Shown here: positions 6,494-42,136 of the stretch, piece by piece
Numbering within the stretch: position 1 is the stretch's first letter
How the letters are laid out: every line of letters starts with the position of its first letter
From: Hydrogenophilaceae bacterium
GTDB taxonomy: Bacteria > Pseudomonadota > Gammaproteobacteria > Burkholderiales > Thiobacillaceae
Reading direction: 5' to 3'
Assembly: GCA_031426735.1 (NCBI GenBank)
Contig: JASJPK010000048.1
Location: 92,607 to 156,606 of the forward strand
Length of the DNA: 64,000 nucleotides
Notes under the pieces: model-generated
What the model was told of the DNA's origin: nothing
Seen by the model: the letters and a program-made list of their open reading frames with translations, nothing else
Databases searched by the model: none
Position numbers and translations under genes: made by a program

Positions 6494-8575
<2,082 letters not shown>

Positions 8576-8640
8576 CGGAAACTAGCCCAAAGCCGCCTAC
8601 AAAACAACCATATCGGCGGCGCGGAAGGGGTATCGCGTCG

Positions 8641-21982: not shown

Positions 21983-22157
21983 ATGCACCCCGAACATGAG
22001 GACGTTGATTCGACGGGTGCATGGTGCCCATGGCATGCCGCCGAAAAAATCGGCGGATGCTTAAACTGCGTGTGGGAGAGCGACGAGGCGCTGTAGGAGG
22101 ATTCCTAGCACGAATTAACCTGAACCTTGGAGAGGTGCTGATTTATTCGTTTCCGTC

Positions 22158-27750: not shown

Positions 27751-27835
27751 TGGTGCCCGGAACCGGAATCGAACCGGTACGGCTTGCGCCGAGGGATTTT
27801 AAGTCCCTTGTGTCTACCTATTTCACCATCCGGGC
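27751..27835 (-). tRNA. tRNA-Leu (anticodon UAA)
   Basis: The reverse complement GCCCGGATGGTGAAATAGGTAGACACAAGGGACTTAAAATCCCTCGGCGCAAGCCGTACCGGTTCGATTCCGGTTCCGGGCACCA folds as a cloverleaf. It has a long variable arm, anticodon loop CT-TAA-AA, a GGTTCGATTCC T-arm, and an encoded CCA. Confidence 0.9.
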
Positions 27836-31134: not shown

Positions 31135-31617
31135 ATGTTTCGCGCCAGTCCCGATGTTTTCGATTTTGTGACGTTGCATTCCGCCAGACAGGCGAAACCG
31201 TGGACGGAAGAAGCCTGCAAGAAACGTTTGCTGGGGAAGCTGCGCGAGATCAAGAAACGGGAGAATCTGACTGTCGCGGCTTATGTCTTGCTCGATGACC
31301 ATGCCCATTTTCTGTTGCGCGCGCCCACCGGCCATTCCTGTTCGACCGTGGTGGAAGCGCTGCAAACCGATTTCCTCGACCTCTGGCGCGAGGCCTCCGC
31401 GCAGTTGCCGGGCCTGGAGCATCGCTCGGTGGTCGGTGCCGAGCAATTGCGCGCGTATCTGGATTTCATCCATTACGAACCGGTGCGGCGAGGCCTGGTT
31501 GAACGCGCCGCCGACTATCGCTGGTCCAGTTTGCCGACCCGCGTAGTGCAAGGGCATTACCCGGAAGACTGGGCGGCGCTGGGGCCGCCTGCCGCAATCT
31601 CGCGCATCATGCGCTGA
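31135..31617 (+). CDS. rayT: REP-associated tyrosine transposase (RayT / IS200-like Y1 transposase)
   Basis: HUH motif in VLLDDHAHFLL and catalytic Tyr block FIHYEPVRRGLVERAADYRWSS. It is colinear with E. coli RayT (VVLPEHMHCIW ... YIYINPVKHGWV..WPFST..YPIDW). The 3' end overlaps the convergent allophanate hydrolase gene by 11 bp. Confidence 0.8.
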   Translation: MFRASPDVFDFVTLHSARQAKPWTEEACKKRLLGKLREIKKRENLTVAAYVLLDDHAHFLLRAPTGHSCSTVVEALQTDFLDLWREASAQLPGLEHRSVVGAEQLRAYLDFIHYEPVRRGLVERAADYRWSSLPTRVVQGHYPEDWAALGPPAAISRIMR

Positions 31618-33403: not shown

Positions 33404-33444
33404 GGCTAGTCCTTTTTCCTGGAAACCTCAGTGAGTGGCGACTC

Positions 33445-33505
33445 GTAGGAGCGCCTTCCAAGGCGCGAAAGTCCGGAACAATCGCGCCTTGGAAGGCGCT
33501 CCTAC
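33445..33505. repeat. REP-A (GTAGGAGCGCCTTCCAAGGCGCGA-N13-TCGCGCCTTGGAAGGCGCTCCTAC)
   Basis: 24-bp perfect inverted arms. It lies between the carboxylase and allophanate hydrolase genes. A near-identical copy is at 42078-42136. Confidence 0.85.
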
Positions 33506-33526
33506 GACACCGGCAACTGCAAGTCC

Positions 33527-33565
33527 GTAGCCCGGATGCAGGCCGAAGGCCGGAATCCGGGCTAC
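33527..33565. repeat. REP-C (GTAGCCCGGATGCAGGCCGAAGGCCGGAATCCGGGCTAC)
   Basis: Imperfect palindrome adjacent to REP-A. A partial copy is at 4595-4624. Confidence 0.7.
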
Positions 33566-33576
33566 GGCTTCGCGAT

Positions 33577-36500
33577 TCAATCCACCACCAGCACCAGCAA
33601 ATCCTGCCCGGCGCTGACCTGGCCGCCTTCGCGGCAGAACACCTGGTAAATCGTGCCGTCGCAGGGCGCGGCCACGCTGAATTCCATCTTCATCGACTCG
33701 ACGATGACCAGCGGATCGCCCGCTTTAACCTTTGCACCGGGCGCGGCCATGATTTTCCAGACGTTGCCGGCGATATGGCTGGCGACGGCGCGGCCGTGTT
33801 CGGGCAGGTCGAGTTCGCTGTCGGTGGCGGCTTCGGCGACGCTGGCGTCGGTGGCGTAGTCGGCCTGGCCGGCGGCTTTCCAGCGCTCGCGTTCGGCTTC
33901 GAAGGCGGTTTGCTGCTGTGTCTTGAAGGCGGCGATGGACGCGGCGTTGTCGGCCAGGAAGCGGTTGTAGTCGGCCAGCCGGAAGGTGGTTTCCTCGATG
34001 CGCAGCTTGTAGCGGCCGAGCGGGAAGTCCTCACGGATTTGCAGCAATTCCTCGGCGCTGACCGGGTAGAAACGAATCTGGTCGAAGAAGCGCAGCAGCC
34101 ACGGTTTGCCGGCGGTGAACTGTGCGGCGCCCTGACGTTCATCCCGCCAGCGATTCCACATCTGCAAGGTGCGGCCGACGAACTGGTAGCCGCCGGGGCC
34201 TTCCATGCCGTAGACACACATGTAGGCTCCGCCGATGCCGACCGCGTTTTCCGGCGTCCAGGTGCGCGCCGGGTTGTACTTGGTGGTAACCAGACGATGG
34301 CGCGGATCGACCGGCGTCGCCACCGGCGCACCGAGATAGACATCGCCCAGGCCCATGACCAGATAGCTCGCCTCGAACACGATGCGCTTCACTTCGTCGA
34401 TGGAGTCCAGATCGTTGATGCGGCGGATGAATTCGATATTGGACGGGCACCACGGCGCGTCCTTGCGCACCGACTGCATGTACTTCTCGATCGCCAGCCG
34501 CGTCGCGGCGTCGTCCCAGGACAGCGGCAGATGGACGATGCGAGTCGGTACTTCCATGTCCTCGATGGCGGGCAATTGCCGTTCCACCGCCAGCAGCAGG
34601 TCCATCAACCGGTCCAGCGGCAACCTGCGCGAGTCGTAATGCACCTGCAGCGAGCGAATGCCGGGGGTCAGATCGAGGATGCCGGGAATGGCTTCGGTTT
34701 CCAGCCGGGTCATCAACGCATGCACGCGGAAGCGCAGATTCAGGTCCAGCACCAGCGGGCCGTATTCGATCAGCAGGTACTTGTCGCCGGCGCGCCGGTA
34801 GACGACTTCGACCGGGTTTTCGGTGAGCGGCGTGCGGTGCAGGATGGGTTGGGCAACCGGGTTTTCTTCGGACGTGGCGGATGCGGAACCGTCGCCAAAT
34901 CCCCCCTGCCCCCCTTTTTCAAAGGGGGGAGACAGCGTCGCAATCGCCGCGTCCTGCGCCGCTTCCAGCCGTTCCGCGTCGGCCTGCGACAGTCGCACGA
35001 AGCGCACCGTATCGCCCGGCCGCAACTGGCCCATCTTCCACAGTTCCGCCTGCACGATGGTGGCCGGGCAGACGAAGCCGCCCAGGCTGGGGCCGTCCGG
35101 GCCGAGGATGACCGGCATGTCGCCGGTGAAATCGACCGCGCCGATGGCATAGGCGTTGTCGTGGATGTTGGACGGATGCAGGCCCGCTTCGCCGCCGTCG
35201 CGCCGCGCCCATTCCGGCTTCGGACCGATCAGGCGCACACCGGTGCGACTGGAGTTGTAGTGCACCTCCCAGTCGGTGGCGAAGAACATCTCGATGTCGG
35301 CCTCGGTGAAGAAGTCCGGCGCGCCGTGCGGGCCGTAGAGCACGCCGATCTGCCAGGCGTGGGTGTAGGGCACGGCCACTCCCCCCTTTGTCAAAGGGGG
35401 GCAGGGGGGATTTAGCGACGGTTCCACTTGCGCAATGTCCGGCGAAATCCCTGATGGAACTTCCAGCCAACTGACTAAGCCGCCAAACGACGGCGGCCAA
35501 GTCTCTGGCTGCCCTAGCCCCCCTTTTTCAAAGGGGGGAACAGTTTGAGCAAGATCGAGGTGGATATGCAGCACATCCCCCACCCGCAGCGTTCTTCCGG
35601 CATGTCCGCCGAACTGCCCCAGCGTGAAGGTGGACTTGCTGCCTAGGTAGTCCGGCACGTCGAATCCGCCGCGCACGGCCAGGTAGGCGCGGGTGCCGGT
35701 GTCCTTGATGGCGCCGAGTTTCAGGATCGAACCGGCCGGTATGGCATGGGCGGCCCAGTTGGCCAGCGGCTGGCCATCGAGTTCAGCGCCCATATCGGCG
35801 CCGGCCAGCGCGATGACGGCGTCGGTGTTGAAGCGCAGCGTCGGGCCGGCGACAGTGAGTTCCAGGCCGGCGGTGCCTTCTGCATTGCCCGCCAGCCGGT
35901 TGGCCAGGCGGAAAGCCAGATGGTCCATCGGACCGGACGGCGGCACGCCGACGTTCCAGTAGCCGGTGCGGCCGGGCCAGTCCTGAATGCTGCTCTGCAC
36001 GCCCGGTTCGATGACGTCGAGGGTCGCCGGCCGGTAGCGGAAGGCGTTCAGGTAGCGCGTGGTCTGGCGACCTTCGGCAAATACGTTGTCGGCCAGAATC
36101 TGGCGCAGGTATTCCAGATTGCATTCGATGCCGGCGATGCGGGTGTCGGCAAGCGCCTGTTGCATCTTGCTGAGTGCTGCGGCGCGGTCGTCCGCCTTGA
36201 CGATGATCTTGGCCAGCATCGGGTCGTAGAACGGTGGCACTTCGCTGCCGCGTTCGACCCAGGTTTCAATCCGAGCCTGTGGTGAGAACTCGACCTGGGT
36301 CAGCACACCGGCGGCGGGTTGGAAGTCCTTGCCGGGGTCTTCTGCATACAGACGCACCTGGATCGAAGCACCCTGCGGCGCGGCATGGAAGCCGCTCAAA
36401 TCCAGTTCGCCGGCGGCCTCCCGCACCATCCATTCGACCAGATCGACGCCGCTGACTTCCTCCGTGACGCCGTGCTCGACCTGCAAGCGGGTGTTCACTT

Positions 36501-37362
36501 CCAGAAAATAGAACTGGCCGCTTTGCGTGTCATAGACGAATTCCACGGTGCCGGCGGAGCGGTAGCCGACCGCCTGGCCCAGCCGCACGGCGGTATCGAG
36601 CAGGTTCTGCCGTTGCGCGTCGGTCAGGCCTGGCGCCGGGGTTTCCTCGATGACCTTCTGGTTGCGCCGCTGCACCGAGCAATCGCGCTCGCCCAATGCG
36701 ACGACATGCCCTTTGCCGTCGCCGAAGATCTGCACTTCGATATGGCGCGCGTGTTCGACGTATTTCTCCAGAAAGATGCCGGCTTCCTTGAAGTTGGCGC
36801 GCGCCAGCCGCTCCACCGACTGGAACGCCTCAACCAGTTCGTCGGCGCTCCAGATCAGCCGCATGCCGATGCCGCCGCCGCCGGCCGTGCTCTTCAGCAT
36901 CACCGGATAGCCGATGCGCGCGGCTTCCGCCTGGGCGTGGCCGGCGTCGCTCAACAGGCCGGAGCCGGGCAGCAGCGGCACATGATTGGCTGCGGCCAGA
37001 TCGCGCGCCGTGTGCTTGAGGCCAAAGGCGCGCATCTGCTCCGGGCTGGGGCCGATGAAGGCGATGCCGGCGGCGGCGCAGTCTTCCGCGAAACCGGGGT
37101 TTTCCGACAGGAAACCGTAGCCGGGATGGATCGCCTGCGCGCCGCTGGCTTGCGCGGCTGCCAGGATTTTTTCCGCGCGCAGATAGCTTTGCGCCGCCGG
37201 GCCGGGACCGATTTCGATGGCCGCGTCGGCCAGGCTGACATGCAGCGAATGCCGGTCGGCCTCGGAATACACCGCGACCGATTTGACGCCCATGCGGCGC
37301 AGCGTGCGGATGATGCGGCAGGCGATGGCGCCGCGATTGGCGATGAGTACGGTATCGAACAT
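33577..37362 (-). CDS. urea carboxylase-family biotin enzyme, probably guanidine carboxylase
   Basis: 1261 aa. It has a biotin carboxylase N-terminus ([20 protein letters not shown]), KipA/KipI-like carboxyltransferase domains and a C-terminal biotinyl domain (VESMKME). It sits in an operon headed by a guanidine-I riboswitch and contains in-frame palindromic repeat insertions. Confidence 0.9.
34897..34929. repeat. REP-D (AAATCCCCCCTG + CCCCCCTTTTTCAAAGGGGGG) inside the carboxylase CDS
   Basis: Palindromic core plus arm. It is translated in frame as [13 protein letters not shown]. Confidence 0.8.
35381..35413. repeat. REP-D copy, inverted orientation, inside the carboxylase CDS
   Basis: CCCCCCTTTGTCAAAGGGGGGCAGGGGGGATTT, translated as [12 protein letters not shown]. 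Confidence 0.8.
35518..35538. repeat. REP-D core copy inside the carboxylase CDS
   Basis: CCCCCCTTTTTCAAAGGGGGG, translated as PPFEKGG. Together with 35381-35413 it brackets about 104 bp. Confidence 0.8.
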
Positions 37363-37438
37363 GTGTCCTCGCTCGCGGGTCGTCCCGCATGCATTTCGTG
37401 CGCTGGACAGGTCGTCCTGTCGCGGCGTTGTTTTTCTT

Positions 37439-37533
37439 CCCCCTTTTTAAAGGGGGATCGAGGGGGATTTGAACGAGGGTCGATCTGGCCGCCCGCGCTA
37501 AATCCCCCCCAGCCCCCTTTTTTCAAAGGGGGG
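37439..37533. repeat. REP-D inverted doublet (REPIN-like) between the UAAP2 and carboxylase genes
   Basis: CCCCCTTTTTAAAGGGGGATCGAGGGGGATTT ... AAATCCCCCCCAGCCCCCTTTTTTCAAAGGGGGG. The second core contains the TGA stop (37523-37525) of the upstream gene. Confidence 0.8.
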
Positions 37534-38188
37534 TGTGCTTTGAGTCCCACACCAGAAACTGCACCGGCGTCGGGTTGTAGGCGTTGCACGGGTTGTTCAG
37601 TTGCGGGCAGTTGGAGACCAGCACCCAGACGTCCATCTCGGCGTGCAATTCGACGTACTTGCCCGGCCCGGAAACGCCATCGGCGAATGTCAGGTCGCCG
37701 TTTTCGGTGACTGGCACGTTCATGAAGAAGTTGATGTTGGGCACCAGATCGGCCTTGGAAAGGCCCGAGTCGGAATGCTGCATGGCGAGCAGGTAGTTGT
37801 CGCGGCAGCTGTGCATGAACTTCTTGCTCAGCGCGTAGCGCACCATGTTGCTCTCCGCCGCGCAGGCGCCGCCTAGCGTGTCGTGGCGGCCGCAGGTATC
37901 GGCGACGATGCTGAGCAGGGGACGCCCCTCGCTGCTATAGAGCACGGAACCGGTGGTCAGGTAGATGCCGCCCTGGCGCAGCATGGTTTCGGTGGCGCTG
38001 TAGTGCTCGTTGGTGTCGTGCCGGTTGTAGAAGATCACGTCGGCGGCCTGGTTGCCATCGAGGTCGACGATGCGCAGGGTCTGCCCCTGCTTCACTTCAT
38101 GCAGCCAGGGTTCGCCGGCGGGCAGCACGACGCTGTGGATGGCGTCGGCGGGATTCAGCGGGCTTTCCTGGATTCGGATGGCGGTCAT
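37523..38188 (-). CDS. urea-carboxylase-associated protein 2 (DUF1989), candidate carboxyguanidine deiminase subunit
   Basis: ATG at 38188 after AAGGAGGA (MTAIRIQESPL). The sequence is DUF1989-like, paralogous to the upstream gene. The N-terminal extension in the ORF track reads through a REP (..SRLRGNDG..). Confidence 0.85.
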   Translation of the reverse strand: MTAIRIQESPLNPADAIHSVVLPAGEPWLHEVKQGQTLRIVDLDGNQAADVIFYNRHDTNEHYSATETMLRQGGIYLTTGSVLYSSEGRPLLSIVADTCGRHDTLGGACAAESNMVRYALSKKFMHSCRDNYLLAMQHSDSGLSKADLVPNINFFMNVPVTENGDLTFADGVSGPGKYVELHAEMDVWVLVSNCPQLNNPCNAYNPTPVQFLVWDSKHTPL

Positions 38189-38206
38189 GGCATCCTCCTT
38201 GTAAAT

Positions 38207-38308
38207 CCCGTCATTCCCGCGAAGGCGGGAATCCAGTCCTGGCAACGGTCTGCATCAATATAACAATCGGATTCAGGAACTGGATTCCCGCATGCGCGGG
38301 AATGACGG
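38207..38308. repeat. REP-B inverted doublet (REPIN-like)
   Basis: CCGTCATTCCCGCGAAGGCGGGAATCCAGTCCTG ... CAGGAACTGGATTCCCGCATGCGCGGGAATGACGG. Two hairpins in inverted orientation flank about 45 bp of lower-GC sequence, between the two DUF1989 genes. Confidence 0.85.
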
Positions 38309-38342
38309 AATGGGTGCGCGGGTTCTTTGAGCATTTCAACAC

Positions 38343-41756: not shown

Positions 41757-41885
41757 AAAAAGGGCGAGAGGGCGGCGCAGCGCTACCTCCCGGGCTTTTA
41801 TCCCTCCGTGGAGCCCCGCCCGAGGGCGGAACCGGCCGGCTCTCGGACCAGACATCCCTTGCGGGACCGGAACCCTAGCTGGCCT
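41757..41885 (-). promoter_or_regulatory. guanidine-I (ykkC, Rfam RF00442) riboswitch with terminator-like expression platform
   Basis: The minus strand reads AGCUAGGGUUCCGGUCCCGCAAGGGAUGUCUGGUCCGAGAGCCGG...CCACGGAGGGAUAAAAGCCCGGGAGG. It carries the conserved CUAGGGUUCCG, GGUCCGAGAG and ACGGAGGGAUAAAAGCCCGGGAG blocks. CGGGAGG can alternatively pair with CCUCUCG, which is followed by CCCUUUUU. Confidence 0.85.
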
Positions 41886-41918
41886 AAGGCACATCGCTGC
41901 ACCTCTCGACTGATCTTT

Positions 41919-42077: not shown

Positions 42078-42136
42078 GTAGGAGCGCCTTCCAAGGCGCG
42101 AAGAACGGACAATCGCGCCTTGGAAGGCGCTCCTAC
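42078..42136. repeat. REP-A copy
   Basis: GTAGGAGCGCCTTCCAAGGCGCGA-N11-TCGCGCCTTGGAAGGCGCTCCTAC. Confidence 0.85.

Follow-up and report, generated by a model that had tools for sequence, protein, structure and literature searches.

How can a palindromic repeat occur several times inside the gene of a working enzyme and leave its reading frame intact? The question is raised by a stretch of 64,000 nucleotides (nt) from a Hydrogenophilaceae bacterium (assembly GCA_031426735.1, contig JASJPK010000048.1, positions 92,607 to 156,606 of the forward strand), which we call the window and to which all coordinates below refer. Its carboxylase gene (33577-37362, minus strand), annotated as urea carboxylase and probably encoding a guanidine carboxylase (see below), carries copies of a palindromic element, here named KGG, within an intact open reading frame (ORF) of 1261 codons. 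As a likely answer, we propose that a non-autonomous palindromic element came to occupy two unconstrained linkers of the enzyme, that it is translated there as flexible loops, and that it was later flipped, trimmed and, in sister lineages, replaced by other elements.

KGG doublets in and next to the carboxylase gene

A pattern search located the palindrome CCCCCCTTTNNCAAAGGGGGG at 34909-34929, 35381-35401 and 35518-35538, all three inside the unbroken 1261-codon ORF, as an initial annotation of the window had reported. Degenerate copies at 37438-37457 and 37513-37533 form a doublet that adjoins the carboxylase gene upstream. Dinucleotide shuffles gave an expectation of zero CCCCCCTTTNNCAAAGGGGGG copies, and the rest of the 64-kb window had none. 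The translations quoted in the annotation were exact, and so was the 104-nt spacer that it placed between the last two copies (35381-35413 and 35518-35538).

The repeat unit exceeds the palindrome and includes an arm, AAATCCCCCC-NN-palindrome; written out in full it is AAATCCCCCC-NN-CCCCCCTTT-NNN-AAAGGGGGG, and its usual form is an inverted doublet of about 98 nt. The canonical doublet, found at both intragenic sites of locus L001, the closest relative, consists of palindrome 1 (CCCCCCTTTGAAAAAGGGGGG), 1-2 nt, the arm GGGGGGATTT, a 31-nt spacer, the arm AAATCCCCCC, 2-3 nt and palindrome 2. Both L001 doublets fold as a single long hairpin (-74.9 and -78.9 kcal/mol, z about -6.7). In the window, the inverted arms of the doublets lie at 35380-35407/35512-35539 and 37439-37470/37500-37531; the two arms of a doublet measure 28-37 nt, with a complementarity of 72-86%. 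Positions 34854-34931 are in addition 83% complementary to 35379-35456 over 78 nt, these being the two intragenic sites B and A, respectively. The KGG copies are inverted doublets like those known as REPINs (hairpin-forming doublets of repetitive extragenic palindromic, REP, sequences) and not the single palindromes for which the annotation had taken them, and the copy at site B is truncated. The terminal inverted repeats of the doublet are also a feature of miniature inverted-repeat transposable elements (MITEs).

The carboxylase has the domain order BC, CT_A_B, CT_C_D, BCCP (Pfam: Biotin_carb_N, CPSase_L_D2, Biotin_carb_C, CT_A_B, CT_C_D, Biotin_lipoyl). Its CT_A_B domain, part of the carboxyltransferase (CT) region, spans 319 residues against the 260 positions of the Pfam profile, which places site A inside CT_A_B; site B lies between CT_A_B and CT_C_D.

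Site A (35379-35540, minus strand) holds a complete KGG doublet in the connector between CT subdomains A and B, recognized by its inverted arms and by DNA alignment to the canonical doublets. It codes for about VPPFEKGG...PPLTKGG, at protein residues ~610-663. Palindrome 1 (35518-35538, minus strand; CCCCCCTTTGAAAAAGGGGGG on the coding strand) is read in frame 0 as PPFEKGG, and palindrome 2 together with its AAATCCCCCC arm (35381-35413, minus strand) is read in frame 1 as 12 residues. The element equals the canonical doublet plus 60 extra nt, and its RNA fold reaches -98.8 kcal/mol (z -7.2). The additional 60 nt (35452-35511, minus strand) lie between palindrome 1 and the GGGATTT arm, keep the frame with 20 codons, correspond to a gap in the alignment with canonical doublets and fold as a stem-loop of their own. 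A variable hairpin occupies the equivalent position in other KGG family members from metagenomes, and this module looks like the regular variable internal hairpin of the family. We also considered it as a repeat and dropped this reading, as it is present as a single copy in the window; a nested transposition was not demonstrated.

The site B insert covers at least 34866-34929 (minus strand) and is a truncated doublet made of palindrome 1, the GGGGGGATTT arm and the 31-nt spacer, coding for 21 residues in the linker between CT_A_B and CT_C_D. Palindrome 2 was lost with 36 nt at a junction of AAA microhomology, whereas relatives retain it and are 12 codons longer at this point. The fold of the remaining element is no better than that of shuffled sequence (z +0.4).

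The third doublet (37436-37535, minus strand; -60.1 kcal/mol, z -6.0) lies between a DUF1989 gene and a guanidine-II riboswitch. The annotation had described it, at 37439-37533, as an intergenic doublet. A doublet it is, but it overlaps the end of the upstream DUF1989 gene (37523-37535), to which it provides the last four codons and the TGA stop in place of the native stop. The DUF1989 product ends in ...WDSKHTPL* in the window and in ...WDSK* in L001, and the TGA derives from the palindrome.

Frame 0 (PPFxKGG) was that of every palindrome 1, and frame 1 that of every palindrome 2. The G/C-rich palindrome has no stop codon in five of its six frames. The rule put forward in the annotation, that only frames reading the core without TGA can be used, holds: of the three frames of TTTGAAAAA, the third (TTTGA) yields TGA, and it is the one that ends the upstream DUF1989 gene. 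Because the palindrome is stop-free in five of six frames and every resident element is in frame, the inserts would be translated as Pro/Gly-rich peptides (PPFxKGG...).

Occupied, empty and exchanged sites among orthologues

We compared the 120 best cluster representatives of the carboxylase, 79-90% identical to it; those with a source name were mostly Thiobacillus (mostly metagenome-assembled genomes, MAGs). Their lengths ranged from 1178 to 1277 amino acids (aa) with a mode at 1197-1200. In a MAFFT alignment, length varied by more than a few residues at two places only, the termini apart: site A, bounded by GDVLH and YTHAW (about residues 602-664 of the query), and site B, bounded by AQDAAIA and PILHRT (about 811-832). 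Protein P0099 (1197 aa), encoded at locus L125, has neither insert and presents the short loops IEAADASAMGEALPASLIPAY at site A and LAAPELINDNGPLAEP at site B, both unlike the KGG peptides. Insert-free orthologues measured 1197-1200 aa and their short loops were likewise dissimilar to these peptides, so that the residues shared with repeat-free orthologues at the same positions, which the annotation had named as evidence against insertion, were not encountered. Loops of this baseline type were also present in more distant proteins of Sulfuricella, Novimethylophilus, Tepidimonas and one cyanobacterium. Among carboxylases of 35-66% identity both sites were hypervariable in length and sequence; site A comprises only about 7 residues in stand-alone PxpC homologues and about 28, unaligned, in the urea carboxylase of K. 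lactis. Scanning 1.84 billion representatives gave matches that were, for the most part among those listed, split into at least two stretches, the best of them beginning just past the site A insert, and no representative protein among those compared aligned through that insert. A second search, for which a diverse profile served as the query, yielded for the most part the Thiobacillus proteins already in the set.

KGG was one of several occupants of the two sites. Judged by peptide signatures, REP-like peptides were present at site A in 46 of the 120 orthologues and at site B in 58. They belonged to at least eight families: KGG (PPFEKGG...PPFSKGG), VIPAxAGIQ/WIPAxAGMT, GEGWGEG, CRSELARD...IASKLAPT, PVGAASRPR, MPESS, VGLKPNL and FDRLRANG. 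In the DNA of eight orthologous loci these peptides corresponded to true inverted doublets, such as GTAGGAGCGGGCTTGCCCGCGAT...ATCGCGGGCAAGCCCGCTCCTAC at site A and GTAGGAGCGAGCTTGCTCGCGAT...ATCGCGAGCAAGCTCGCTCCTAC at site B of L123, and GTCATACCGGCGAATGCCGGTATCCAG...CTGGATACCGGCATCCGCCGGTATGAC at site A of L124, and two families stood next to each other at site B of L126. The two linker positions are general hot spots for many REP families in other lineages. A further slot lies between the DUF1989 stop codon and the riboswitch. L001, L002 and L124 each had a doublet of their own there, and in L125 and L126 the slot was empty. One orthologue group therefore displays empty, filled, flipped (see below), truncated and replaced states at two defined linkers. 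A neighbour-joining tree with Fitch parsimony gave 30 and 35 state changes. Since the clade is star-like, we did not take these figures as numbers of events and used the tally of distinct families as a lower bound.

Four of the orthologues (P0049, P0058, P0085 and P0093) showed, at sites A and B, a module HPQGVGHGCKA... within the spacer of VIPA-type doublets. It is another nested or variable module inside an in-frame REPIN.

The insert-to-gene junctions were common to the genomes carrying KGG; at site A they read ...GTT/CCCCCC and GGGGGG/AG..CCCTAC (the slash marks the junction) in both the window and L001. Spacers at the two sites were homologous to each other and between genomes, yet strongly diverged. 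Two of them, the site A spacer of the window and the site B spacer of L001, were inverted relative to the other genomes, which may reflect either recombination between the inverted arms, preserving length and frame, or re-insertion.

KGG elements in other genomes

A scan of GTDB, with one genome per species, gave at least 120 KGG loci, several of them from the same MAG. Among the matches listed, they belonged to Delta-, Beta- and Gammaproteobacteria, Nitrospirota, Acidobacteriota, Chloroflexota, Planctomycetota and others; Sulfuricella, Chromatium okenii and Lysobacter are examples with many KGG units. The exact 32-mer AATCCCCCCTGCCCCCCTTTNNCAAAGGGGGG was found in at least 120 metagenome contigs with a GC content of 43-72%, none of those listed encoding this carboxylase; the dispersed loci from both sources add up to at least 240. 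About a quarter of the listed metagenomic copies were doublets. The consensus of 154 oriented copies was aAAtcCCCCCc..CCCCCCTTTTtCAAAGGGGGG, with the AAATCCCCCC arm retained. The spacer-arm junction GAACCGTYGCYAAATCCCCCC had no match in the metagenome collection, and this spacer type is therefore not a dispersed sub-family in that collection. No Rfam family matched the KGG element, the only hits being chance microRNA-like matches to other hairpins, and our literature searches retrieved no paper matching the element or the peptides it encodes.

KGG copies avoid long ORFs: the median longest ORF spanning a copy was 206 aa, versus 402 aa at control positions. Nevertheless, at least nine copies were read in frame within genes that had Pfam support; most of these copies fell in linkers between domains or lengthened a domain. 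Their hosts were an Lhr helicase, a POR/DUF6537 oxidoreductase, Tex, RecJ, RlpA, a solute-binding protein, an FGE-sulfatase-domain protein, a DNA methylase and a hybrid kinase. Five of these in-frame loci (read as PPFEKGG or PLLQRGE) are L077:684-6632 (Lhr helicase, Luteimonas), L091:2668-5094 (Tex), L020:6188-7984 (RecJ), L024:372-2417 (RlpA) and L078:1069-4824 (POR/DUF6537 oxidoreductase). In about 190 kb sampled from six KGG-bearing Thiobacillus-type genomes there were 22 palindromes: 19 in the carboxylase gene, two abutting it and one elsewhere.

Age of the insertions and proposed mechanism

Outside the two slots, the ratio of nonsynonymous to synonymous substitution rates (dN/dS) of the carboxylase was 0.09-0.14 against six orthologues, at synonymous divergences (dS) of 0.25-0.70. 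A value of about 0.1 indicates that the gene is under purifying selection. That the inserts could be an assembly artefact, or the gene a decaying pseudogene, had to be considered since these are metagenome-type assemblies in which strong hairpins and homopolymer runs are prone to error. We regard this as hardly credible. The architecture recurred at both sites in the DNA of six independent assemblies and in further protein clusters from NCBI, JGI and ENA, an agreement among independent sources that excludes an assembly artefact, and the ORF was intact with all catalytic domains present and a low dN/dS. Together with the insert-free P0099 and the identical units dispersed in unrelated genomes, the intact and selectively constrained ORF bears out the proposal of the annotation that these are in-frame insertions comparable to the Rickettsia palindromic elements (RPEs).

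The KGG insertions are, by sequence comparison, old and not recent landings, because their junctions and homologous spacers are common to relatives at dS of up to about 0.7. Most likely, the ancestor from which this Thiobacillus-type clade descends acquired a non-autonomous KGG element in two unconstrained CT connectors: site A joins CT subdomains A and B, and site B links CT_A_B to CT_C_D. Each resident element would have kept the frame, and the enzyme would remain functional since all homologues vary strongly at these two positions, in length as well as in sequence. Remodelling in place would then account for the inversion of spacers between inverted arms, the loss of one arm at site B and the extra hairpin module at site A, and in sister lineages REPIN doublets of other families would have come to lie in the same two slots. 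By analogy with known elements, mobilization may have occurred in trans through a hairpin-recognizing enzyme. In an AlphaFold2 (AF2) model of the CT domain, the predicted local distance difference test (pLDDT) score fell below 50 at residues 161-218 and 371-391, which are the inserts, and the confident core matched structures 3va7 and 5i8i. From these low scores, the hypervariability and the position at subdomain boundaries we infer that the inserts lie at the surface.

Several observations weigh against this proposal. The orthologues were all retrieved as intact proteins, and copies broken by out-of-frame insertions would therefore be missed. A clean pair of filled and empty sites was not found among the loci compared, so that no target duplication could be read. 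The consensus of the 154 oriented copies had no GTAG or CGTC tag, no recurrent neighbour gene or transposase stood beside the at least 240 dispersed loci, and the near-absence of KGG from the sampled flanks is odd for an active dispersed family. A gene resembling those of REP-associated tyrosine transposases (RAYTs) lies in the window 2 kb from the carboxylase (31135-31617, plus strand), and its flanks had no KGG or other REP units. Two AF2 models of the CT region had a low overall confidence (mean pLDDT of 54 and 59.5), because only close homologues were supplied, and they show no more than that the inserts are modelled as low-confidence coil. Finally, the invariance of the palindrome stems, presented next, is not predicted by simple neutral tolerance.

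Conservation of the palindrome stems

The stems CCCCCCTTT/AAAGGGGGG were identical in all the genomes compared, while the 3-nt loops and the spacers varied. The stems contain 13 four-fold synonymous sites in codons with a conserved amino acid, and none of the 13 varied among the 4-6 genomes; over the whole gene, 30-40% of such sites were invariant in these genome sets. The product of the gene-wide invariant fractions was about 1e-6, for sites that are few and maybe non-independent. Either the palindrome itself is constrained or it is refreshed by some process, and this invariance offers a testable handle on the question of whether such elements are tolerated or kept for a function.

On one explanation, the in-gene hairpins would be kept for a role of the nucleic acid, with the peptide as a by-product. 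That role might be ribosome pausing at domain or subdomain boundaries for co-translational folding, processing by RNase III or another enzyme that tunes the decay of the operon mRNA, or protein binding. The stem sites that stay fixed where the 3-nt loops and 31-nt spacers vary freely are what such a role would leave, and the stem codons were CCC and GGG in every genome compared. High stability is predicted for the folds (-98.8, -74.9 and -78.9 kcal/mol, z about -7), both slots fall exactly at subdomain or domain boundaries, other strong hairpin doublets occupy the same slots in other lineages, and this 9-kb operon accounts for 13 of the 15 REP units found in the window. We nevertheless think this explanation unlikely. 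About half of the close orthologues are insert-free at a given site, and the insert-free DNAs compared (L125, and L002 at site B) are under the same purifying selection. The window's own copy at site B has lost its partner arm and folds no more stably than shuffled sequence (z +0.4). Stem conservation could also stem from constraints of the element itself, such as recognition by a mobilizing enzyme, or from gene conversion. A more specific form of the idea, quite improbable in our estimation, is that the two CT linkers are docking slots in which REPIN hairpins are retained by selection on the nucleic acid, their stems being kept as RNA or DNA structures that pace translation or mRNA processing at domain boundaries. 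If it were right, KGG would count as a palindromic element shared across phyla, not described before, that has a role for its host from within coding sequence.

Alternatively, the stems would look conserved since the copies are young or refreshed, either by re-insertion in the same slots or by gene conversion (from other KGG copies, including conversion between sites A and B), and not through a long vertical residence under selection. The inverted spacers at site A of the window and site B of L001 fit flipping in place or re-insertion, and the homology between the spacers of the two sites also agrees with such an origin. Slot occupants turn over among relatives at dS 0.25-0.3; upstream of the carboxylase there is a KGG doublet in the window versus a doublet of another family in L001. 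On the other hand, the junctions are identical, the spacers are homologous but strongly diverged and the flanking codons have diverged too, with no sign of recent exchange; the divergence of codons and spacers makes a recent exchange of the segment unlikely. Donors are scarce, as the roughly 190 kb of sampled flanks had a single KGG palindrome away from the gene region, and conversion between arms would preserve their complementarity, not one sequence in all lineages. We consider refreshment of the copies improbable as the source of the invariance.

Comparison with known palindromic elements

The proposal of old, tolerated and translated insertions has precedents. In-frame palindromic insertions are established for the RPEs (Ogata et al. 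2000, as cited in PMC3733652 and PMC3184786). According to these accounts, RPEs are palindromic repeats of about 100-150 nt, present in frame in genes for functional proteins and also between genes, and several can occur in one gene. KGG resembles them in its doublets of 98-162 nt, which are also found elsewhere in genomes, and in its in-frame insertions absent from orthologues. As far as those accounts go, RPE hosts are an obligate intracellular genus, whereas KGG hosts are free-living Betaproteobacteria and members of many phyla. Unlike in the RPE case, two slots of one gene are taken here by many families, and the stems are conserved at synonymous sites. In general, the RPE consensus is AT-rich and would be unrelated to that of KGG.

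Intragenic REPs and inverted dimers tagged with GTAG or CGTC were described by Di Nocera, De Gregorio and Rocco (2013; PMC3733652), who found dimers encoding 20-30 aa and some genes with two inserts, and whose interpretation was that the host genes tolerate them. Tagged REPs of this type make up several of the non-KGG families seen at the two sites in orthologues; the KGG unit differs by having neither tag. The genes in that study were also different, mostly of DNA repair and replication, and a multi-family hot spot in one orthologue group was not described there.

The REPIN/RAYT system (Bertels and Rainey; Nunvar et al. 2010, via PMC3733652 and PMC5581495) offers a third parallel. In the descriptions available from these sources, two inverted units with a short spacer form a long hairpin, and the elements are non-autonomous and dispersed, with long-lived orthologous copies. 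KGG shares these traits, as a short imperfect palindrome with many, mostly extragenic copies and inverted doublets that fold into one hairpin, and a RAYT-like gene lies 2 kb from the carboxylase. KGG differs in lacking the GTAG/CGTC tag and a cognate RAYT flanked by the same units, no link to a RAYT having been found, and in having hosts of 43-72% GC where REPINs, as described there, belong to one species or genus.

By analogy, KGG would work like the RPE and the GTAG/CGTC REP dimer insertions. What appears to be new is a cross-phylum repeat family for which we found no description, the reuse of two slots by at least eight families, and the conservation of stems at synonymous sites. The case documents, in unusual detail, the way in which "extragenic" palindromic elements bring new stretches of peptide into a working enzyme and swap them. 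For annotators and protein modellers, the practical lesson is that low-complexity loops encoded by REPs (PPFxKGG, VIPAxAGIQ, GEGWGEG and others) are to be expected in real proteins of these taxa.

The guanidine operon and its other REP families

The carboxylase scored 1908 bits against NCBIfam TIGR02712 (urea carboxylase; cut-off 1304), covering positions 1-1200 of the 1201 of the profile. An active-site Asp marks guanidine carboxylase and an Asn marks urea carboxylase. A guanidine-II (mini-ykkC) riboswitch (37375-37423, minus strand; Rfam RF01068, 39.2 bits versus a gathering score of 32) lies immediately 5' of the carboxylase start codon, and its twin ACGR hairpins were kept in all seven loci compared. 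A guanidine-I riboswitch (Rfam; 41785-41889, minus strand) lies upstream of the ABC-transporter and DUF1989 genes. The two riboswitches bracket an operon that encodes an ABC importer, two DUF1989 proteins, the carboxylase of urea-carboxylase-type architecture and an allophanate hydrolase. Because the riboswitches, the two DUF1989 genes and the downstream allophanate hydrolase match the layout of the guanidine carboxylase pathway operon as far as it is set out in PMC12186494, the gene content suggests that the host enzyme is most likely a guanidine carboxylase rather than a urea carboxylase. The annotation had called it essential, a term that does not suit a riboswitch-controlled, conditionally used enzyme of nitrogen assimilation, which is not obviously essential. 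The DUF1989 ORF next to the carboxylase (carboxyguanidine deiminase-like; 37523-38245, minus strand), whose 3' end runs into the third KGG doublet, probably has its true start near 38188. In the insert-free locus, the second DUF1989 gene (L125:9279-9872) was called as 197 aa with an unrelated C-terminus; the usual C-terminal coding sequence follows in a different frame, a pattern suggestive of either a frameshift or an error of sequencing in the assembly concerned.

Three further REPIN doublets, recorded without strand, were found in the operon. Two of them, of the GTAGGAGCGCC type (33443-33507) and of the CCGTAGCCCGG type (33525-33567), lie between the carboxylase and allophanate hydrolase genes and fill a spacer that is absent in relatives, where the genes overlap or abut (e.g., in L002). 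The third (38205-38311), between the two DUF1989 genes, belongs to the GTCATTCCCGCGAAGGCGGGAATCCAG family, which is read in frame as VIPAxAGIQ/WIPAxAGMT at sites A and B of other orthologues. REP units of the window (four families) occupy every intergenic gap of the operon (33.4-42.2 kb), at 33443-33507, 33525-33567, 37436-37535, 38205-38311 and 42078-42136; those outside it are only the units at 22155 and 22208.

The RAYT-like ORF codes for a Y1 transposase of 160 aa with HxH and YxWSS-type motifs. It scored 63 bits against NF047646, below the cut-off of 80, and 28 bits against Pfam Y1_Tnp, above the cut-off of 23. Its end overlaps that of the convergent allophanate hydrolase gene by 11 nt, and it is 91% identical and syntenic in L001. 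No homologue was present in the at least 120 GTDB KGG loci searched. A link of this gene to KGG was therefore not supported, as it had no flanking REPs and no homologues near the other KGG copies searched.

The Rfam gathering scan also gave a thiamine pyrophosphate (TPP) riboswitch (8473-8576, minus strand) and a tRNA gene (27754-27835, minus strand), both unrelated to the KGG elements.

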